Below are positions 10,142 to 33,825 of a stretch of 33,825 nt of DNA, in pieces. The DNA is taken from positions 1-33,825 of IMG/VR virus record IMGVR_UViG_2713896907_000008, one strand, 5' to 3'. The position numbers and the translations under genes are program-made. Source of the DNA: a virus (lineage: Duplodnaviria > Heunggongvirae > Uroviricota > Caudoviricetes). A model generated the notes under the pieces. That model had not been told where the DNA came from, searched no databases, and was given only the letters and a program-made list of their open reading frames with translations. The stretch's first letter is position 1. Every line of letters starts with the position of its first letter.

Positions 10142-10708
10142 TCAGGGAGATTCATTGCTCTTATTTGCCGGAAATTTTCGATAAATGGTAGAAACGCCTA
10201 CATCAAAAATCAGTGCAATACGCTGTCTTGATTCTCCGGCCTTGAGTAAACGCCCAATCTGTGCCCACTGTTCGCTGGTCAACTTAGGACGGCGTCCACC
10301 TACTCTGCCTTTGGCACAAGCTGCAGCCAGCCCTGCCCTGGTACGTTCAACTATCAGTTCGCGTTCCATTTCAGCCAGGGCACCCATGACATGAAAAAAG
10401 AAACGGCCCATTGGGGTACTGGTATCAATACTGTCAGTCAGACTTCGGAAATTCACGCCGCGCTGGCGCAACTCTTCTATCAGCGTAACAAGATGCCGCA
10501 TACTGCGTCCCAACCTGTCCAGCTTCCAGACAACCAGCGTGTCTCCTGCCGATAGTGTCCTGAGTAGTTTTTTCAGCCCCGGTCTGTCGGACTTAGTGCC
10601 ACTGATTTTGTCCTCAAAAATCCGCTCACATCCCGCGCAGTTCAGTGCATTACGTTGCAAATCGGTGTTCTGGTCATTTGTTGACACGCGTACATAGCCA
10701 ATAAGCAT
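10142..10708 (-). CDS. serine DNA invertase (Gin/Pin/Cin/Hin family)
   Basis: MLIGYVRVSTNDQNTDLQRNAL ... SLTDSIDTSTPMGRFFFHVMGALAEMERELI is near-identical in its motifs to Mu Gin as I recall it. Start set at the ATG with an AGGGGA ribosome-binding site; the ORF track begins earlier at 10825. Confidence 0.9.
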   Translation of the reverse strand: MLIGYVRVSTNDQNTDLQRNALNCAGCERIFEDKISGTKSDRPGLKKLLRTLSAGDTLVVWKLDRLGRSMRHLVTLIEELRQRGVNFRSLTDSIDTSTPMGRFFFHVMGALAEMERELIVERTRAGLAAACAKGRVGGRRPKLTSEQWAQIGRLLKAGESRQRIALIFDVGVSTIYRKFPANKSNESP

Positions 10709-10735
10709 GATCAATCCCCTGAATAAAAACCGGGG

Positions 10736-11170
10736 ATGATGCCAGTTAGCCATTATCTCTGCATTTTCATAAACGTTGGTTTGGGAGAAGCGGCAAAACG
10801 GAATATCGGTGCTGGAGCCAATCAAGTCCCCGACATGTCCTTTTTTACATCAGCAAAGGGTGATAACGGATACTTTTCCTTACCGGACGGCACTATTGTG
10901 CAATATGGAAAAGCCACAACGATAAGAAATAATGAAATTAGCCTGGTAACTTTGCCATTTTCCTTTCCCACAAAGTTCTCTCAGGTACTGATAACCCATG
11001 ATGATGCCGCAACTACAAATGCAGTTGCTTTTGGCGCCGCCACTCCAAAAACTGTTTCAACATTTCAGGTTGTCGTGCAGAAACTAGATTTTAATACCGC
11101 CACTGGAGCTGTCACATTACGAACCACTGCTTCACCGTGCTACTTCCGTTATATCGCAATCGGGAGCTAA
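10736..11170 (+). CDS. alternative tail-fibre C-terminal segment, silent in this orientation
   Basis: No independent start context; shares GLGEAAK at the crossover site with the expressed fibre gene H, then diverges. Confidence 0.6.
   Translation: MMPVSHYLCIFINVGLGEAAKRNIGAGANQVPDMSFFTSAKGDNGYFSLPDGTIVQYGKATTIRNNEISLVTLPFSFPTKFSQVLITHDDAATTNAVAFGAATPKTVSTFQVVVQKLDFNTATGAVTLRTTASPCYFRYIAIGS
10764..10789. repeat. invertase crossover site, left (hix/gix-like, 12-2-12)
   Basis: TTTTCATAAACG TT GGTTTGGGAGAA; 23 bp (10776-10798) is a perfect inverted copy of 12137-12159. Confidence 0.7.
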
Positions 11171-11174
11171 TTTT

Positions 11175-11399
11175 ATGCAAAACAAATACAGTCCATCTAT
11201 GAATACGTTCTTTATGGCTGAATTTATGCGTCGTTACGAACAAGCTGGTACATTGCCTGATGATGCAATAGAGATACCCGATGAAGTATTTAAAGAATAC
11301 ACAGGGGAACCACCGGACGGAATGATGAGGGTTGCGGGTAGTGATGGTCTACCCGCATGGGCAGAAATTATTTACACTCAGGAACCATCGGCCAGATGA
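11175..11399 (+). CDS. alternative tail-fibre assembly chaperone, short (74 aa)
   Basis: N-terminal similarity to the 151-aa chaperone on the opposite strand (…GSDGLPAWAEI… versus …GDDGLPCWVDL…), but stops after 74 aa. Confidence 0.5.
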   Translation: MQNKYSPSMNTFFMAEFMRRYEQAGTLPDDAIEIPDEVFKEYTGEPPDGMMRVAGSDGLPAWAEIIYTQEPSAR

Positions 11400-11823
11400 T
11401 ATCAGGAGCACTGGAGGTATCAATCAGTTCCAGTGCGTCCAGATAATCCAGCCACAGATTATATTGCGCCAGTTCCTCACCTTTCAGACGCCCGATTGCT
11501 GCTTTGCCGGGCCACTGCTTGCTATTCATATAATCGTTGGCCTGGTCAATTCTCGACTGCTTTTCTGAGTCAGCCACTGCAAGTTGTTCTTCATGCGTAG
11601 GTGGCGGAAGATCTACCCAGCAAGGCAACCCATCATCACCAATGCTCCGCACTTTACCTTCGGGAGCTTCTCCCATGAAAACCAGCGCATCGGCAGCATT
11701 TATATTGATGCCGTCTGACGGCCATGTGCCAGCAGTTAAATAATCATCTTGTAGTGCTACAAGATAAAAAGCATTTTCAGCCGGGCTGAATACATAGTCG
11801 ACCATTAATATCCCACTCCCCAT
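11368..11823 (-). CDS. G: tail-fibre assembly protein G
   Basis: 151-aa ORF immediately after H, inside the invertible segment. Confidence 0.8.
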   Translation of the reverse strand: MGSGILMVDYVFSPAENAFYLVALQDDYLTAGTWPSDGININAADALVFMGEAPEGKVRSIGDDGLPCWVDLPPPTHEEQLAVADSEKQSRIDQANDYMNSKQWPGKAAIGRLKGEELAQYNLWLDYLDALELIDTSSAPDIIWPMVPECK

Positions 11824-13208
11824 ACTGCCACTGTTGAATTAGATTTCGTATATGCGCAAGCGGCTTTGAATTTGACCCGGTCAACAATCGCTGCGCTAAC
11901 AAAAGGAGCTCCATTAGTCGCGTAGATCACAGAATTGACCAGCGAAGGATTGATGGAAAGGCAAGCATTAGGAAAGGCAACCGGCCATGAGTCATCAACA
12001 ACGACCATATTACCGTCGGTAGATTGCGGCACTGATACCATCTTCCACTGAAGCAGTGCTGTTCGTTGTACTCCACCAATTAATACTGGAATAGTGATGT
12101 TACCTGCACTGCTGGCCAATGCTGTTGCAGCAGGCATTTTTGCCGCTTCTCCCAAACCAAGGTATGTGAGAAGACCAGCTACATCCTTTCCACTCAAATT
12201 AGTCAGCGTATTGTCCAGCGGTTGTTTACCTGCCAGTGCATTAAGCATTGTCGTGGCAAAGTTCGGGTCATTCCCCAGCGCCGCCGCCAGTTCGTTCAGT
12301 GTATCCAGTGCCGCAGGTGCAGAACCCACCATTGCCGCAATCGCCGATTTCACAAAAGCCGTAGTGGCAATCTGTGTATTGTTGACCGACTGCGCCGCCG
12401 TGGGGGCTGTTGGCGTTCCGGTGAGTGCCGGACTCGACAGTGGCGCTTTCAGTGCCAGCGCATTGTTAATGGTGGTACTGAATTTCGGATCATTGTTAAT
12501 GGCTACGGCTATTTCTTTCAGCGTGTCCAGCGTGGCTGGAGCACCATTAATAAGAGCCGTCAGTGCCGCCTGAACAAACGCGGTGGTCGCAACCTGCGTG
12601 GTGTTATTCCCCGCCGCTGGCGTTGGCGCTTTGGGGGTTCCGGTAAACGTCGGACTTTCTTTGGGTGCATACTGTGAATGCGGGTCCGGTGCGGCAAGAT
12701 GTTTTGCCATCAGGTCATCCACGTACACCTTCAGCTCCAGTGCCTTGTCATCCACATACTTGCGGGTTGCCAGCACTACGGCAGGGTCGATTTTCAGGGT
12801 GATATTGTCCGTGCTGCTGGTAATCAACACCATACGCACGGTCTGGGTACGCCCGCTGCCTTCAGCCAGTTGCGGCTTATAGCTTTCCGGGCAGTTGCCC
12901 ACGGCAATCAATGCCCCGGACTCATCAAACAGGCCCACTTCACGTATCCACCAACCGCCCTCGTTTTCAGGGATCACCTGTTCAGCAATAATCTGGCTGC
13001 TGTTCTGCGGGTCGATATAGAGCATATTCAGCGCAGCCCGGCGTTTCTCATTTACTAATGCTGTCTGCTTTGCGTTCGGCGTTGGCAATGTTCCGCCGCC
13101 ATCGCCGACCGCCATATGGGTAATTTTTAAAGGCACACCGAGCGCGGCGGCGCTGGCAAGTTTCGCCGCGCCAATATCCGTCAGCAGGGTATAAAATTTT
13201 GTGCTCAT
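11805..13208 (-). CDS. H: tail fibre protein H; the last ~118 codons lie inside the invertible segment
   Basis: 467-aa ORF with two copies of a fibre repeat (TTAFV…AP..LDTL.E.A.A..NDP.F.TT..NALA.K.PL); crossover site at 12147-12172. Confidence 0.85.
   Translation of the reverse strand: MSTKFYTLLTDIGAAKLASAAALGVPLKITHMAVGDGGGTLPTPNAKQTALVNEKRRAALNMLYIDPQNSSQIIAEQVIPENEGGWWIREVGLFDESGALIAVGNCPESYKPQLAEGSGRTQTVRMVLITSSTDNITLKIDPAVVLATRKYVDDKALELKVYVDDLMAKHLAAPDPHSQYAPKESPTFTGTPKAPTPAAGNNTTQVATTAFVQAALTALINGAPATLDTLKEIAVAINNDPKFSTTINNALALKAPLSSPALTGTPTAPTAAQSVNNTQIATTAFVKSAIAAMVGSAPAALDTLNELAAALGNDPNFATTMLNALAGKQPLDNTLTNLSGKDVAGLLTYLGLGEAAKMPAATALASSAGNITIPVLIGGVQRTALLQWKMVSVPQSTDGNMVVVDDSWPVAFPNACLSINPSLVNSVIYATNGAPFVSAAIVDRVKFKAACAYTKSNSTVAVWGVGY
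12147..12172. repeat. invertase crossover site, right (inside H)
   Basis: TTCTCCCAAACC AA GGTATGTGAGAA, inverted relative to the site at 10764-10789. Confidence 0.7.
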
Positions 13209-21659: not shown

Positions 21660-23426
21660 ATGAACACCACACTGACACCCGCAGATCTCGATCCCCGTCG
21701 GCAGGCCATGCTGCTGTACTTTCAGGGATACCGCGTAGCCCGCATTGCTGAAATGCTGGGCGAGAAAGTTGCAACCGTTCACAGCTGGAAAAAACGCGAC
21801 AAGTGGGGTGACTATGGGCCGCTGGATCAGATGCAGCTCACCACCGCCGCCCGCTACTGCCAGCTCATTATGAAGGAGCACAAAGAAGGGAAAGATTTCA
21901 AAGAAATTGACCTGTTGGCGCGCCAGTCGGAGCGCCACGCGCGGATCGGCAAGTTTAACAATGGCGGCAACGAAGCCGACTTAAACCCTAACGTCGCCAA
22001 CCGCAACAAGGGCCCGCGCCGTCAGCCGGAAAAGAATGTTTTCACCGATGAACAGATTGAGAAACTGGAAGAAATCTTCCATTCCTCCATGTTCAACTAC
22101 CAGCGCCACTGGTGGGAAGCCGGAAAAACCAATCGCATCCGCAACCTGCTGAAGTCTCGCCAGATCGGCGCGACCTTTTACTTTGCCCGTGAAGCCCTGA
22201 TTGACGCCCTGCTGACCGGGCGTAACCAGATTTTCCTTTCTGCCAGCAAGGCTCAGGCCCACGTCTTTAAACAGTACATCATCGACTTTGCCAAAGAAGT
22301 GGAGGTGGAGCTGAAAGGCGATCCGATGGTGCTTCCTAACGGGGCCACGCTTTACTTCCTCGGCACCAATGCCCGCACGGCCCAGAGTTACCACGGCAAC
22401 CTGTATCTGGATGAATATTTCTGGATACCGAAATTCCAGGAGCTGCGCAAAGTGGCTTCCGGTATGGCTATTCACAAAAAATGGCGACAAACCTATTTTT
22501 CCACGCCATCCAGCCTGACACACAGTGCTTATCCGTTCTGGTCCGGTGCACTGTTCAACCGTGGGCGCAACAAAGCTGACAAGGTGGACATCGACCTGTC
22601 CCACAGCAATCTGGCCCCCGGCCTGCTGTGCGCGGACGGGCAATACCGCCAGATAGTCACCGTAGAAGATGCGGTGCGCGGCGGCTGTAACCTGTTCGAC
22701 CTTGACCAGTTGCGCATGGAGTACAGCCCGGACGAATACCAGAACCTGCTGATGTGCGAGTTTGTGGACGATCTCGCGTCCGTGTTTCCGCTCAGCGAGC
22801 TGCAGGCGTGCATGGTGGACAGTTGGGAAGTCTGGACCGACTTTCATGCTCTGGCCCTGCGCCCATTTGGCTGGCGCGAAGTGTGGATCGGTTATGACCC
22901 GGCAAAAGGTACGCAGAACGGCGACAGCGCCGGATGCGTGGTGGTGGCACCGCCAGCCGTGCCAGGCGGTAAGTTTCGCATTCTTGAGCGTCACCAGTGG
23001 CGCGGGATGGACTTCCGTGCCCAGGCGGACGCAATCAAAAAACTGACCGAGCAGTACAACGTGACCTACATCGGCATCGACTCAACCGGCGTTGGTCACG
23101 GGGTTTACGAGAACGTGAAAGCGTTCTTTCCTGCCGTCCGGGAGTTTGTCTACAACCCCAACGTTAAAAACGCCCTGGTACTCAAGGCCTACGACATTAT
23201 CAGCCACCGCCGTCTGGAGTTTGACGCCGGACACACCGACATAGCGCAGTCCTTTATGGCAATCCGTCGCTCCACCACCGCCAGTGGCAACCGCCCGACC
23301 TATGAAGCCAGCCGCAGCGAAGAAGCCAGCCACGCCGATCTGGCATGGGCAACGATGCACGCACTGTTTAACGAACCGCTGCAGGGCGAATCCGCCAATA
23401 CCAGCAATATTGTGGAGATTTTTTGA
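21660..23426 (+). CDS. P: terminase large subunit (ATPase/nuclease) P
   Basis: 588-aa ORF divergent from O, P2 order and size. Confidence 0.85.
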   Translation: MNTTLTPADLDPRRQAMLLYFQGYRVARIAEMLGEKVATVHSWKKRDKWGDYGPLDQMQLTTAARYCQLIMKEHKEGKDFKEIDLLARQSERHARIGKFNNGGNEADLNPNVANRNKGPRRQPEKNVFTDEQIEKLEEIFHSSMFNYQRHWWEAGKTNRIRNLLKSRQIGATFYFAREALIDALLTGRNQIFLSASKAQAHVFKQYIIDFAKEVEVELKGDPMVLPNGATLYFLGTNARTAQSYHGNLYLDEYFWIPKFQELRKVASGMAIHKKWRQTYFSTPSSLTHSAYPFWSGALFNRGRNKADKVDIDLSHSNLAPGLLCADGQYRQIVTVEDAVRGGCNLFDLDQLRMEYSPDEYQNLLMCEFVDDLASVFPLSELQACMVDSWEVWTDFHALALRPFGWREVWIGYDPAKGTQNGDSAGCVVVAPPAVPGGKFRILERHQWRGMDFRAQADAIKKLTEQYNVTYIGIDSTGVGHGVYENVKAFFPAVREFVYNPNVKNALVLKAYDIISHRRLEFDAGHTDIAQSFMAIRRSTTASGNRPTYEASRSEEASHADLAWATMHALFNEPLQGESANTSNIVEIF

Positions 23427-24451
23427 TGGGAAAGAGTAAGAAAAACCGCGCAGCGGCGATGAATCAGATCCAGCATAAAAGCCAGACTTCAGCCGAAGCA
23501 TTCAGCTTCGGCGATCCCGTTCCTGTTCTGGACCGTCGCGAACTGCTGGACTATGTGGAATGCGTACAGATGGACCGCTGGTATGAGCCGCCTGTGAGTT
23601 TCGACGGCCTGGCGCGAACATTCCGCGCCGCCGTACACCACAGCTCACCGATTGCAGTAAAGTGCAACATTCTGACCAGCACCTATATCCCTCACCCGCT
23701 GCTCAGCCAGCAGGCTTTTTCACGTTTTGTGCAGGACTATCTGGTATTTGGTAACGCCTACCTGGAGAAACGCACGAACCGCTTCGGTGAAGTTATCGCC
23801 CTTGAACCTGCGCTGGCAAAATACACCCGACGCGGGTTAGACCTGGATACCTACTGGTTTGTGCAATACGGCATGACTACGCAGCCGTATCAGTTCACGA
23901 AAGGCAGCATCTTTCATCTGATGGAACCGGATATCAACCAAGAGATCTACGGCCTGCCCGGTTATCTTTCTGCCATTCCGTCAGCCCTGCTCAACGAGTC
24001 CGCCACGTTGTTCCGCCGTAAGTATTACATCAACGGCAGCCATGCAGGCTTCATCATGTACATGACCGATGCCGCGCAGAATCAGGAGGATGTGAACAAC
24101 CTCCGCAACGCGATGAAAAGCGCCAAAGGTCCAGGCAACTTCCGCAACCTGTTTATGTACTCACCTAACGGCAAAAAAGACGGGCTTCAGATCATCCCAT
24201 TGTCAGAAGTCGCGGCGAAGGATGAATTTCTTAACATCAAGAACGTGAGTCGGGATGACATGATGGCAGCGCACCGCGTGCCGCCGCAAATGATGGGGAT
24301 TATGCCGAATAATGTTGGGGGGTTTGGGGATGTGGAGAAGGCGAGCTGCGTCTTCGTAAGAAATGAACTATTACCACTTCAAAAAAGATTCATGGAAATA
24401 AACAGATGGCTTGGTCATGAAATTATAAATTTTGAAACATATACATTATAA
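23423..24451 (+). CDS. Q: portal protein Q
   Basis: 342-aa ORF coupled to P, P2 order and size. Confidence 0.85.
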   Translation: MMGKSKKNRAAAMNQIQHKSQTSAEAFSFGDPVPVLDRRELLDYVECVQMDRWYEPPVSFDGLARTFRAAVHHSSPIAVKCNILTSTYIPHPLLSQQAFSRFVQDYLVFGNAYLEKRTNRFGEVIALEPALAKYTRRGLDLDTYWFVQYGMTTQPYQFTKGSIFHLMEPDINQEIYGLPGYLSAIPSALLNESATLFRRKYYINGSHAGFIMYMTDAAQNQEDVNNLRNAMKSAKGPGNFRNLFMYSPNGKKDGLQIIPLSEVAAKDEFLNIKNVSRDDMMAAHRVPPQMMGIMPNNVGGFGDVEKASCVFVRNELLPLQKRFMEINRWLGHEIINFETYTL

Positions 24452-24456
24452 AACCC

Positions 24457-24479
24457 AACGGCATCACAATGATGCCGTT
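24457..24479. terminator. hairpin between convergent Q and the cargo gene
   Basis: Perfect 9-bp stem AACGGCATC / GATGCCGTT with a 5-nt loop; on the minus strand it is followed by GGGTTTTATAAT. Confidence 0.6.
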
Positions 24480-24488
24480 ATGAACGAA

Positions 24489-25550
24489 TTAATATTCAAA
24501 ATTATTTTCTTCAATAGAGAATTCAATCCCTCGGGATAACTTATCAATATTCACATCAAATTCGATATCTGTTAATTCACCATTCTCGATTTCATACATA
24601 ACTTCAATCTCAATATCGAAACTAATCTCTTGAACTTCAGTTCGTGTGGTTGACTCCATTGGAATCATTACTTTATCTTCGCTATCCCAATACCCATTAT
24701 TAAAGTCTGGACCAGAAACAGTAACTTCAAAATCTACAGGAACAGAGAAGGTCGCTAGACAATAATTATTGTTAATCTTAATTATTGATGGTTCAAAGTC
24801 ATCAATATTGACGACTTCAAATGAATCCAATTCAGCGTCTTCCCAAGTTGAAACGTTATATCCATCGGCATCATTGAGTTGGGCAATTACGTCCGCTCTT
24901 ATGTCTTCACGTTTGCTTTCGATAAACTGCATCAATTTATTACTTAATTCGTTTGTATGCGTATTGTATTCACCTAGAAACTTATCAAGTGAATCAACTT
25001 GATGAAGATTGTTTTTACCATCACAATAATTTTTTAAGTCACTATCCTCAGAAATGATATACACATCTTCATCATTAACAAATCGCTCTACCGCAGCTAA
25101 AGTGATTGCATCAGGAAACTCACTCTTTTTCTTATTTTGCCCAAATGGTGGTTCTTTGCCAAAGTATTTATCTAAAATCTCATTAAGATCTATCACTTCT
25201 ATTGGAGCTAATTTGGCGTGACATCCTTTCAAAAAATCATCAAAAACTTTTTGTGCTGCTTCGTGAATTTCATGTTCGTTAAATTGCTGAAAAAAACCAT
25301 GGAGCGGTCCATTATCAATACTATTCAAAAGCCTAGCTTTTCTTTGTACTGTGTTTATAGCCTGCAGAGCATCCTTTATTGATTCCTCTATTTTACCTTT
25401 TACTTCTCTCTCTACAACTGTAGTTGTAATTAAGACTAAATCACCTTTCGCACATAATTCATGGAAAGCTTTAAATGCTACCCCCTCAAAATGAAGACCA
25501 GCCTTTACGTACGTTTGTGTGTCAATAAATACCTTATTTGTTTTAAGCAT
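24489..25550 (-). CDS. cargo protein, 353 aa: PIN-like N-terminal domain plus acidic C-terminal domain of unknown function; candidate defence/abortive-infection nuclease
   Basis: AT-rich relative to flanking phage genes; own AGGA ribosome-binding site and terminator. Candidate PIN acidic residues: D in VFIDTQ, E in REVKGKIEE, D in EFPDAITL, D in IISEDSDL. Confidence 0.6.
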   Translation of the reverse strand: MLKTNKVFIDTQTYVKAGLHFEGVAFKAFHELCAKGDLVLITTTVVEREVKGKIEESIKDALQAINTVQRKARLLNSIDNGPLHGFFQQFNEHEIHEAAQKVFDDFLKGCHAKLAPIEVIDLNEILDKYFGKEPPFGQNKKKSEFPDAITLAAVERFVNDEDVYIISEDSDLKNYCDGKNNLHQVDSLDKFLGEYNTHTNELSNKLMQFIESKREDIRADVIAQLNDADGYNVSTWEDAELDSFEVVNIDDFEPSIIKINNNYCLATFSVPVDFEVTVSGPDFNNGYWDSEDKVMIPMESTTRTEVQEISFDIEIEVMYEIENGELTDIEFDVNIDKLSRGIEFSIEENNFEY

Positions 25551-25676
25551 ACTAATCCTAATAAGTTTTAAGGTCCGCTACAATTGTTTATGTTTATTTT
25601 TTATCAATAATCATACGTAGTTAAGATTATCCATGTCGAAAAATTAAATCAACTTCAATTTATCCTTAAGCGCGCG

Positions 25677-25695
25677 CTCGTATCCCCGCCACGCC
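25677..25695 (-). other. candidate cos cohesive-end site
   Basis: Minus strand reads GGCGTGGCGGGGATACGAG; the first 13 nt match the P2/186 cohesive end as I recall it (GGCG(A/T)GGCGGGGAAAGCA-). Confidence 0.45.
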
Positions 25696-26074
25696 TGCCC
25701 GCTTTATGCAGTGGTTTTCATGCACATGCATGACATGAGCAAAAGCCCGCCAGTTCTGGCGGATCTGAGCAAAGACGATCCTCAATCGATCATGCGATTT
25801 CATGCAGCATAGTCATGCACTGTCAAGGAAGTGAAAATCCGTATCTGAATGGCCACTTGAAAAACGGATCATACGGGTTTACAAAGATGAATGTTCGCTG
25901 TGAACGGGAAGCGGAAGTTAGCTTTCAGATAACATAATCCATATGCACGAGAACCTCTAAAATAGAATGGGACACCTAAGCGGGGTACTTACAACGATTC
26001 TTTCCATATTCACAGTTAACACTCTGTTTGGCGTATTTTTATTCAAATAGCAAACACCAATAAAAGGAGTTTCC

Positions 26075-27187: not shown

Positions 27188-29602
27188 TTAATACAGGTTC
27201 CGCCACTTATCATCTTCCTTCAGACGCTGGTTCCGATAGAAGATACGCAGGCCTGCTCCTGACGGAATACTGCCGCCGCGAAGGAGCAAATCGACTTCTT
27301 TCTCGCTGCCATCAAATCCCCTGGACTTCAGTTCATAGACGAGCTGCTGTCGCTGATGGTCTGTAATTCGCTGTTTGTAGTCTTTACGCCGTTTCGGTTT
27401 CACCTGGCGTAACCTTGCAGCCAGTTCCCGGCGCTCTTTTTTGCTCATACTGTGCAGGTAATCGTGCAACTCCTTGTCATTCATACGGGTAATATCCGTT
27501 CTGGAGTCCCCATCAGCTGATTTGTCTTTCCCTTGTTGGTTCAAATTTTCAGCAAGGGGACAGTTATTGCCACGAGTCCAAGGGGCGCAAGCGCCCTGGT
27601 CGGCTGCCGCCTCCTGAACGTCAACGGCCTTACGAACCATTTTCCACTTCACTGCATGAGTGCAGATCTTGCCCTCTGCAATGGGTGACCAGATGCCATA
27701 AATACGAATACCGTGATCGCCATAGGCGGTCGGCTCTTCGTTAATTTCATAAGCGGTTCTGATGAGGTGATATTTACGGGGAACCAGTACACCTCCCTGC
27801 TTCATGATATAGGTGGCAAAACAACCAGCATCAGCAGCAGCCAGAATGGCATCAAGGCGCGGGTTATCCAGTACCGGCACACCTGCTTTTTTGTCACCCT
27901 GCTGCCTTGCCGCCTGACCAGCCAGCAATCGCAGTTCACGGTAAGCCTGACGCCCCGGAATACCAAAGAAGCGGAATTGCTGAACACGATGCAAAGACGC
28001 CCAGGCATTCACGTATTCAGCGTTATCACGAAGAGATTTACCCGTTTCCTTGCTGATCTCGCCAGCCAGACCACGCCCGTCAATGTTCTTACTGATGTAT
28101 TTCGCTATGTAGCTTGTCGGCGTTCCTTTGCGCGGGTTAATCAGCTCAGACTTAAAGCGCGGCCCCGTGTTATTGCCCAGCTCCTCGCGGTCTTCACGGA
28201 TAGCAAACTTACGCAACAATGCAGTAATGGCGCGGCGGTCTTTTTTGCGCATGAAACACAACAGGTGCCAGTGAACTGTGCCGTCGTGATGCGGCTCAGC
28301 CACCCGCACGCCATACCAGCGCAACCCGGCTTTGTGCATCGCCTTACGAAATGCAGCAAACATACCGACCAGATAATCGCTGCTTTGTCTTACCGTCGCG
28401 TTTTTCCAGGTCGGGTTGGGTCTGCCGTTATTGAGCGTGGAATGGAAACGTGACGGACAGGTAATGGTGTAGAAAACGGCGCAGTCACCGCGCATTTCCG
28501 CGATAAGCTCCAGACCTTTAACACAGGCCATCATCTCATTGCGGCGATGCGCCGGGTTGCTGCAGCTGGCGTTTACCACATCTTCCATATCCAGCGCGTC
28601 TCCGTCTTCGTTCACCAGTTCATGAGAACGGAAAAACTCCAGCGACTTACGGCGCTGCTCACGTTTATGCATCACAGCTTCATAGCTGACATAGGGAGAT
28701 GCTTTTTTGCTGACCAGGCAGACAGCACGCAACTGCTCTTCCCGCCATTCGCAACGCATCTTCCACAATTTCCGATACCACCAGTCGGCGCACAGCATAC
28801 GCGCCAGCGAGCCCGGAATGAGTTCATAGGGCACTGGTTTACGGCGGTTTCTTTTCCGACGGAGTTGCTCAAACGCAGGCGGGATGACATCCAAACGTAG
28901 GGTTTCCGCTGCCACCTTTTCCCATGTCTTGCGGATTTCTTCTGGCTTAACATCATCGGTGGCGTACAAATCACCACAAGCGGCATCAAGACACATGCTC
29001 ATATGCGCAGCGACAAGGGTAGACAGGCGTTTCACCTGATCCTGACTCATTTCAGGCAGGATCAGCAGGCCGTCCAGCCCTTCATGGCTTGCCATAAAGC
29101 GAAAAGAAGTGGATAGCTGACTGTCGCGTACATGCTCCAGTCGTTCCAGACATGGCTTAATCGTCTCACGCAAATAGCGGGAATAAGCCTTTGGCCTGCC
29201 CAAGCTGCTGAAGTATTCAATACGTTGCATCAGCGGCTTGCTGATATGGGAAGGCTGGGCGTTGACGTCAGCCAGAATGACCATGTCTGGATTAAAACGC
29301 TGCTGCTCATGCGCCAGCTTTGCCCGGCTAATGAGCTTATCCTGCTCCATTTCGCGCTGGACAGGATCACGGGATTCATTAAAGAAATAACGCTCCCAGA
29401 CCTGCTCACTCAGTGCCTCGCGGCGCAGTTGTTCCTGCTCGTTATCGGCAACATACAGAGTGATCAGGTTTGAAAGTGCAGACTCCGGCGCAACTTCCGC
29501 CGGGTCCAGATAAGGGTTAATGGCCTTTTTCGGGCCGTTCCATGAAAATGATGCAGCGGCCTCGTTAAAGCCGCTAGAGTTGCTCATATCGTCATGACTC
29601 AT
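27188..29602 (-). CDS. A: replication initiation protein A (rolling-circle type)
   Basis: 804-aa ORF at the end of the early operon; size and position as P2 gpA. Confidence 0.8.
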
Positions 29603-32931: not shown

Positions 32932-33825
32932 ATGAATTTCAAAAGCGGAGGACAAGCAGTCATAACACGTATGCTTGAAGCGTATGGATTCAAGACGCGG
33001 CAAGCTCTATGTGAACAGTTCAATGTATCTGCAAGTACTATGGGAACGCGCTGGATGCGTGACGTATTTCCTGCTGACTGGGTAATTCAGTGTGCAATTG
33101 AAACAGGGGCATCTATCGAATGGCTCTCATTCGGAAAAGGCGTACCATTCCCTCAGAATACAGAGGCACCGGTCATGTCAAAGGCAACTGCACCAAAGAT
33201 TCAGCATGTTCCCCAAATCAATAATCAAGAGAACCCTATTGGGAACTTCCTGAATTTGGATTCAGGCGGGCGTGATGCAATAGACCGGCTAATGAAAGCG
33301 TATGGCTTCAAAACAAGACAAGAACTTGCCGACCATTTGAATGTATCTAAAAGCACCATGGCAAACAGATATTTACGAGACACTTTCCCAGCTGATTGGA
33401 TCATAAAATGCTCGTTGGAAACAGGAAATTCTCTTTTATGGCTAGCCACTGGGCAAGGCAGCAAGCACAGTTCTCTCACAACATTGGTAAAAGAGCTGCC
33501 TAAATTTCATCTCAATGCAGGAAAAATGGTTGAGTGTGGTTCATATATTTTCGATACATCATTTTTACCTGCTAATCTTTCAGCACCAATTGTCATTCAA
33601 GACGGGTTGATGACATACATTTGTGATCAAAACATTACTGATGTATTGGATGGACACTGGCTCATCAATATCGATGAAACCTATTCAATTCGGCATATTA
33701 CAAGACTACCTAAGAAGGTGATAAAAGTATCATCCTCCATAAATAGCTTTGAATGTGGTTTTTCTGATATCAATTTTGTTGCTAGAGTTTATTTATTCAT
33801 TTCCAGCATCAATAAAAGCAATTAA
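32932..33825 (+). CDS. immunity repressor with two tandem CI-type HTH domains and a C-terminal domain of unknown function
   Basis: Residues about 5-70 and 105-170 are about 60% identical repeats (…AYGFKTRQ.L…NVS.STM..R..RD.FPADW.I.C..ETG.S..WL..G.G) resembling the 186 CI N-terminal domain; the stop coincides with the window end. Confidence 0.65.
   Translation: MNFKSGGQAVITRMLEAYGFKTRQALCEQFNVSASTMGTRWMRDVFPADWVIQCAIETGASIEWLSFGKGVPFPQNTEAPVMSKATAPKIQHVPQINNQENPIGNFLNLDSGGRDAIDRLMKAYGFKTRQELADHLNVSKSTMANRYLRDTFPADWIIKCSLETGNSLLWLATGQGSKHSSLTTLVKELPKFHLNAGKMVECGSYIFDTSFLPANLSAPIVIQDGLMTYICDQNITDVLDGHWLINIDETYSIRHITRLPKKVIKVSSSINSFECGFSDINFVARVYLFISSINKSN

Follow-up and report, generated by a model that had tools for sequence, protein, structure and literature searches.

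The virus record IMGVR_UViG_2713896907_000008 of IMG/VR, analysed here over its 33,825 nucleotides (nt) and hereafter called the window, is a 186/P2-type prophage in which an AT-rich gene at positions 24489-25550, between the portal gene and cos, encodes a 353-amino-acid (aa) protein of the PIN_12 family. This PIN gene is a divergent relative of a known single-gene PIN defence and has already been catalogued at this locus. It is probably, although far from certainly, a lysogenic-conversion cargo gene whose product serves as a self-contained PIN_12 anti-phage nuclease of the same broad family as Cosus (Brc24). The defence reading is favoured because the gene is cargo in a defence hotspot, its PIN site is intact, its relatives are found in defence islands and two of these relatives are protective; the detailed mechanism merits considerably less confidence.

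Cosus is a single PIN_12 gene that confers complete resistance to T7, and its T12A, D14A and D96A substitutions reduce protection by more than 1e5-fold (bioRxiv 10.1101/2024.07.02.601719). To obtain the Cosus sequence, the supplementary DNA was read by machine and traced to plasmid pKAZ2 (KR827391.1, 89666-90814). In a BLASTP comparison, the window protein and Cosus share 28% identity over residues 2-313 (312 residues; E = 2e-18). The original prediction, made from the sequence alone, regarded the gene as the best candidate for an uncharacterised single-gene defence or abortive-infection effector. Its cargo status, PIN domain, genomic context and lack of a conserved partner all fit a single-gene defence, but the kind is already known: the protein is a full-length homologue of Cosus, which brings it in part within a named family, another PIN_12 protein of the same hotspot belongs to the validated DS-5 system, and WP_000920989, the nearest RefSeq allele of the window protein (97% identity), has already been catalogued. 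The evidence does not set abortive infection apart from other modes of protection.

The N-terminal half of the protein matches the Pfam family PIN_12 (PF16289, formerly DUF4935) with an E-value of 2.1e-26 and a score of 93.8 bits (cut-off, 32), residues 7-171 being aligned to positions 1-171 of the 172-position profile. In total, 164 full-length homologues of about 355 aa were identified, with identities of 40-57%. The AlphaFold2 model of the 353-aa protein (predicted local distance difference test score, 88.8; predicted template-modelling score, 0.80) displays the alpha/beta/alpha PIN fold of the VapC structural group. Four acidic residues, D10, E49, D147 and D169, are invariant both in an alignment of 57 homologues and in one of 17 sequences including Cosus, and D147 resides in a loop of the PIN domain that is likewise invariant (K140-K141-K142-x-E-F-P-D147-A). 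The Pfam match, the fold and the catalytic residues confirm the PIN-like nature of the N-terminal half that had been proposed, and the four spaced acidic residues pointed out at that time are those that proved to be invariant across the family. As judged from the alignments and the model, the VapC-type PIN active site is intact, and nuclease activity is predicted. Scans of the 353-aa protein against NCBIfam and PHROGs yielded nothing useful, a sequence profile searched against all PDB chains returned chance matches to kinases only, and neither a signal peptide nor a membrane segment is present in the model.

The PIN domain is followed by a helical linker and an acidic, beta-rich C-terminal domain, which again gave a confident model when folded alone in silico. 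This domain contains invariant motifs of its own, namely Y-N-x-S-x-W-E-D (residues 231-238) and G-P-D-x-x-N-G-x-x-D-x-E (residues 280-291). It matched no named family, and a Foldseek search of the domain against viral structures identified none at E <0.01 save another phage protein annotated as a 'PIN like domain' protein. The earlier statement that the C-terminal domain can be assigned to no family therefore holds for both profile and structure searches. When a profile of the domain was searched against 1.84 billion representative proteins, 294 matches were obtained, essentially all of which are proteins of ~350 aa carrying the domain at roughly residues 187-355; PIN_12 was found in front of it in 10 of the 10 distant matches checked. 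On these profiles, the C-terminal domain is specific to this family, always accompanies this PIN domain and has not been passed on to other effectors. Matelska et al. (2017) described DUF4935 proteins as products of monocistronic genes, ~350 aa long, in which the PIN domain is N-terminal and the C-terminal region has an alpha/beta structure particular to the family. The window protein fits this full-length architecture in its size (353 aa), its domain order and the absence of a conserved neighbour. Literature searches under the accession, DUF4935 and PF16289 found only this 2017 classification of PIN proteins.

The PIN gene is a foreign, horizontally acquired, non-core piece of mobile cargo in a known defence hotspot. 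The gpA-gpQ interval has been described as such a hotspot by Rousset et al. 2022 (PMC9122126), and the gene is located within it, between the A homologue and the portal gene beside cos, and is variably present. Among 1292 complete Escherichia coli genomes having the same flanking portal/cos sequence, the gene is carried by 36; this distribution across genomes with shared flanks agrees with the original view of a self-contained cargo gene that does not belong to the P2 core. In other genomes, the same portal-to-cos slot contains genes for SieB, DUF4062, an S1 peptidase, TIGR02391, DUF6953 or a different PIN protein. Table S5A of Rousset et al. 2022 (PMC9122126) includes the arrangement 'hypothetical + DinI + hypothetical + PIN_12', in which WP_000920989 is labelled PIN_12; this protein is not named in the text of that paper among the systems tested there.

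Identity between the PIN gene and the RefSeq allele (6190-7251 of locus L001) is 98.9%, but that between the adjacent portal gene (23423-24451) and its counterpart (5127-6152 of the same locus) is only 94%. This difference makes the cassette younger than the backbone and suggests that it was recently transferred between diverged backbones. The low-GC tail of the portal gene is found again beside the PIN_12 gene in P2-like prophages of Pantoea and of metagenomic origin (loci L008 and L009). Because the tail recurs together with the PIN_12 gene, one boundary of the cassette, the left recombination boundary, is likely to lie inside the portal gene and the other at cos. In Enterobacter phage ENT4 (PV844615.1, locus L015), a PIN_12 homologue (41%) is located at 3995-5059 between gpS and gpV, the slot that is occupied by orf30 in P2; members of the PIN_12 family thus occupy two or more of the cargo slots in P2-like phages.

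The GC content of the PIN gene is 0.337 (0.254 at third codon positions), against 0.534 in the bulk of the portal gene and 0.516 over the whole window, so that the original observation of a GC content far below that of the flanking phage genes (about 0.53) stands. The start codon is supported because homologues begin at the same Met-Leu-x-Thr, and the AGGA ribosome-binding site that had been predicted is present at 25559-25556. No match to the exact P2 cos 19-mer was found in the window, with up to 3 mismatches allowed; cos was located instead by an alignment of the circularised P2 cos junction with the reverse complement of 25669-25725, in which 44 of the 57 positions align. The 150-170 nt around cos are kept in 45 P2-like phage records. 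In P2, 167 nt separate cosL (bases 1-19) from the stop of Q (base 187), whereas the portal-to-cos gap in the window measures 1225 nt (24452-25676), ~1.06 kb more than in P2 and in accordance with the ~1.2 kb that had been estimated. A terminator scan of the region detected 4 terminator-like sites versus 1.1 in shuffled sequences. The terminator hairpin that had been placed at 24457-24479 was recovered as an 11-pair stem-loop at 24456-24480, situated between the convergent portal and PIN genes, with GGTTTTAT coming after the stem on the minus strand. The hairpin probably terminates transcription in both directions; its T-run is on the PIN-gene strand. Its identification as the P2 tQ terminator was rejected; a weak alignment maps within P2 gene Q (E = 0.68). 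The coordinates of these and other features are given in Table 1.

Table 1. Features of the PIN gene and its surroundings in the window.
Feature	Position	Strand	Remarks
PIN_12/DUF4935-type coding sequence, 353 aa, complete	24489-25550	-	ATG start, TAA stop (24489-24491)
PIN nuclease domain (predicted), residues 1-185	24996-25550	-	Catalytic-type D10, E49, D147, D169
Helical linker, residues 186-228	24867-24995	-	Helices 188-199, 202-212 and 214-227 in both models
Acidic beta-rich C-terminal domain, residues 229-353	24492-24866	-	Net charge -27, isoelectric point 4.05
AGGA ribosome-binding site	25556-25559	-	5 nt before ATG (25550-25548); direct reading
Putative promoter, TTGATT (25652-25647), 17-nt spacer, TAATCT (25629-25624)	25624-25652	-	Direct reading
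Second putative promoter, TCGACA-18-TATGAT	25639-25610	-	Direct reading
cos equivalent, 19 nt, GGCGTGGCGGGGATACGAG	25677-25695	-	P2 cos alignment; right-hand boundary of cargo slot
Hairpin	24456-24480	.	Terminator scan: 11-pair stem, 5 GC pairs, 3-nt loop, then GGTTTTATAA
Low-GC 3' end of portal gene, ~105 nt	24347-24451	+	GC 0.28 versus 0.53 for the rest
Portal gene (Q)	23423-24451	+	Convergent with the PIN gene
Replication gene A homologue	27188-29602		
Very acidic open reading frame, 111 aa	26075-26410	+	gpA side of cos; RefSeq: DUF8087; GC 0.40

Relatives of the PIN gene were found in 240 species-representative genomes belonging to many phyla, and a number of them have defence genes in their vicinity. 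A complete RosmerTA system (RmrT and RmrA, matched with E-values of 6e-92 and 7e-196, respectively) is encoded directly upstream of the PIN_12 gene in the P2-like prophages of Pantoea and of metagenomic origin (L009:4236-5943 and L008:4233-5937). Together with the PIN_12 gene, RosmerTA makes their portal-to-cos slot a small defence island of two systems. AbiTii is encoded near a relative in Pseudomonas aeruginosa, and AbiH near relatives on IncX4 plasmids; a Gabija-like pair of OLD-TOPRIM and UvrD and an AAA_23/MC2/CTD6 conflict system are found near relatives in Vibrio. PADLOC analysis of 113 immediate neighbours at 31 loci identified type I restriction-modification, Iet, AbiO, AbiJ, Nhi, Shedu, DpdF and PDC-S51, as a plain listing over these loci.

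No conserved neighbour of the PIN_12 gene was found across the 31 loci. Two candidate arrangements with additional components were considered and rejected. A conserved small downstream partner was dismissed, the small open reading frames (ORFs) at 20 homologous loci being mutually unrelated, and so was a three-component system consisting of a helix-turn-helix protein, an M78 peptidase and the PIN protein, the two upstream genes in Pantoea being those of RosmerTA, which is absent from the window locus. The PIN gene leaves 127 nt of free space upstream to cos and 37 nt downstream to the portal stop; this space is too short, and the window locus therefore contains no partner or antitoxin gene. 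Rfam and repeat scans of the window for an RNA antitoxin or a ToxI-like array also found nothing.

A mechanism that fits these features can be outlined as follows. The prophage would express the PIN gene constitutively from its own putative promoter, and before infection the PIN domain would be held silent, in the simplest case by the C-terminal domain of the same protein. Instead of a VapB-like antitoxin, the protein would then have an inhibitor or sensor of its own in this domain, the same logic as has been proposed for DS-3 (see below). Infection by another phage would release the metal-dependent nuclease, which would then cut RNA (tRNA, rRNA or mRNA, as VapC enzymes do) and stop the infection, protection being achieved either through the destruction of phage transcripts or through shutdown of the infected cell. 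A more specific version, in which the acidic C-terminal domain is a covalent antitoxin and sensor that mimics nucleic acid or in some other way plugs both the basic K-K-K loop and the PIN active site until it is pulled off by a particular phage protein, is unlikely. Such a protein would be a one-polypeptide switch with a fold new to immunity, and its cos-adjacent site might allow it to be used against P4-type satellites or related P2 phages.

Several observations weigh against the proposal that the PIN gene encodes a Cosus-like anti-phage nuclease. The window protein shares only 28% identity with Cosus, and the similarity of the C-terminal domains is weak (hidden Markov model E-value of about 1e-4 for one sequence; hhalign probability of 15%), so that it is to be placed in a separate subfamily. 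Of the three Cosus residues reported as critical, only D14 has a conserved counterpart, T12 and D96 being replaced by F8 and Q89, respectively. For the Cosus substitutions D153A and D177A, which correspond to D147 and D169 of the window protein, no strong loss is reported in the text (bioRxiv 10.1101/2024.07.02.601719). In the same study, weakened Cosus mutants kept ~100-fold protection, an escape mutation was located in the tail protein gp12 and a dual activity was proposed, so that the mechanism may involve more than nuclease catalysis. The promoter of the gene is also less secure than had been supposed: the hexamers do occur at the positions given in the original prediction, but promoter-like sites in the AT-rich stretch are not enriched (8 versus 7.3 in shuffled sequences), and at this chance frequency the promoter is plausible only. 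A scan against PADLOC-DB 2.0.0 (2023) gave 0 families for the window protein at E-values of up to 1; Cosus itself also has 0 matches in PADLOC 2.0, and this negative result therefore reflects a library that predates the Cosus and DS-5 papers. Finally, the proposed inhibitory or sensory function of the C-terminal domain is purely inferential.

The Cosus data are also the starting point for a different explanation, according to which protection is mainly non-nucleolytic and results from a block of genome injection or of a virion or tail component, the PIN fold being a binding module and the acidic domain a decoy or nucleic-acid mimic. The ~100-fold protection left in weakened Cosus mutants and the sole escape mutation in T7 gp12, on which the authors suggest interference with injection, are compatible with this explanation, as are the net charge of -27 of the C-terminal domain and its own invariant acidic motifs. 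The four acidic residues of the PIN domain and the KKKxEFPDA loop are, however, invariant over wide divergence, as they would be in a working active site, catalytic mutants of the PIN_12 protein of DS-5 abolish defence, and a protein without a signal peptide or membrane segment in its model is not what would be anticipated; we regard a mainly non-nucleolytic mode of action as distinctly improbable. It is similarly improbable that the protein is a toxin-like ribonuclease serving the prophage itself, in lysogen stability, in stress or in lytic action on host RNA, host defences or P4, and not in defence against unrelated phages. PIN/VapC proteins are classic toxins, the gene is 127 nt from cos, the only region that P2 has in common with its parasite P4, and the hotspot also holds non-defence cargo such as partition systems and toxins. 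Yet neither an antitoxin gene nor an antitoxin RNA is present at the locus, and none is conserved at homologous loci; the family also occurs outside phages, in defence islands, plasmids and integron cassettes; two of its members protect when cloned alone or with one partner; and the gene is missing from most P2-like phages and is thus dispensable for the phage life cycle.

That the PIN gene is half of a multi-gene system, as in DS-5, and is inert or toxic when alone, with its partner encoded elsewhere in the prophage or the host, has a low probability. DS-5 does require a second protein, and two genes on the same strand lie directly upstream in the Pantoea and metagenomic P2-like prophages, but the latter constitute RosmerTA, a complete system that is absent here. 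The window contains no DS-5A, the protein has only 20% identity to DS-5B and a different C-terminal domain, and Cosus works alone, in keeping with the lack of a conserved neighbour across the 31 loci. Least credible of all is a decaying or functionless passenger ORF. Between the two E. coli alleles, 9 of the 12 differences are nonsynonymous, which corresponds to a ratio of nonsynonymous to synonymous polymorphism of about 0.7, a value that derives from very few events, too few to judge selection. The reading frame is intact with all invariant residues kept, none of the 9 substitutions falls in an invariant column, and full-length homologues with 40-57% identity are distributed across many genera, in addition to the relatives in 240 species-representative genomes.

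In the remainder of the window, the terminase and portal genes occupy 21660-24451, and a Dam methylase and CII and CI regulators of the 186 type are also encoded. Host ybjM/ybjL (Asp-Al_Ex permease) is present at the left end (290-2621), and the ORF for the 186-type CI repressor (32932-33825) reaches the right edge; judging from this repressor, regulation of the prophage is 186-like and not P2-like. A resolvase/invertase gene on the minus strand (10142-10825; Pfam Resolvase and HTH_7) adjoins the tail-fibre and tail-fibre-assembly genes (11368-13208), suggesting a Gin/Cin-type invertible host-range switch. The very acidic 111-aa ORF on the other side of cos is a second cargo gene of the gpA-gpQ hotspot. 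It had no match in the copies of Pfam and PADLOC used; a decoy or anti-defence function would suit so small and acidic a protein.

If the PIN gene does protect, Cosus-type single-gene PIN defences would extend from integron cassettes to temperate phages. The gene would then provide a natural, chromosomally expressed E. coli example in a well-understood prophage and a divergent subfamily in which to find what the C-terminal domain senses and what the nuclease cuts. The locus also illustrates cassette exchange among P2-like phages clearly, with boundaries in the portal gene and at cos and a cassette younger than the backbone. Current thinking would be left unchanged, because the hotspot, the domain family and the concept of one-gene PIN defence have all been published already.

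Compared with known systems, the window protein differs from VapC toxins in its size, which is 2.5 times theirs, in its long helical insert and additional C-terminal domain, and in lacking a VapB-type antitoxin gene at its locus; it reached none of the VapC-type PIN models in Pfam. P2 old and tin and other gpA-gpQ cargo genes are similar to the PIN gene in being AT-rich, non-essential prophage genes beside cos that exclude other phages. The proteins are unrelated, however, and old and tin are located on the gpA side of cos, whereas the PIN gene is on the portal side. DS-3, identified by DefensePredictor (PMC13092281; WP_022645725), is a one-protein PIN defence proposed to be auto-inhibited until infection and, like the window protein, has no antitoxin. 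Its PIN domain is split by a ~200-residue insert, whereas that of the window protein is followed by a beta domain, and assignment of the window gene to DS-3 was rejected for lack of detectable sequence similarity (best E = 0.35).

DS-5, from the same study (PMC13092281), consists of WP_021513008 (DUF5830/AcrIF4-like) and WP_021513009 (PIN_12), referred to here as DS-5A and DS-5B, respectively; it protects E. coli, and both the PIN catalytic residues and the partner are needed. It shares with the window gene a PIN_12 nuclease and the location, the DS-5 gene pair being also included in the table of the P2 gpA-gpQ hotspot. DS-5 is nevertheless a two-gene system, the window protein is only 20% identical to DS-5B, over a PIN-domain stretch of ~147 residues (E = 2e-7), and in their C-terminal domains the two proteins are unrelated. 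A tblastn search with DS-5A gave no match in the window or the related loci. With this low identity and no DS-5A, the window gene was rejected as a DS-5 system. In E. coli EC6563, the same portal-to-cos slot contains a gene of the DS-5B lineage (L014:3492-4637; WP_100756028, 39% identical to DS-5B), which has no annotated DS-5A partner and is separated from DinI by ~395 nt; WP_100756028 may be a partner-less variant of DS-5.

The Cosus gene, for whose product a hexamer has been proposed, forms an attC cassette within a class 1 integron on a plasmid. The window gene, by contrast, occupies a slot of a P2 prophage, and no attC-like inverted repeat flanking the PIN gene was found in the repeat scan. 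Homologues without attC are reported by the Cosus authors (bioRxiv 10.1101/2024.07.02.601719), and the attC context is therefore not function-defining. Both proteins (382 aa in Cosus and 353 aa in the window) match Pfam PIN_12, have the same two-part layout and are encoded by single genes with no antitoxin. D14, E52, D153 and D177 of Cosus correspond to D10, E49, D147 and D169 of the window protein, respectively, the K-K-x-E-F-P-D-A-I loop is common to both, and the W-E-D and G-x-D-F motifs in the C-terminal domain of Cosus align with the window protein.

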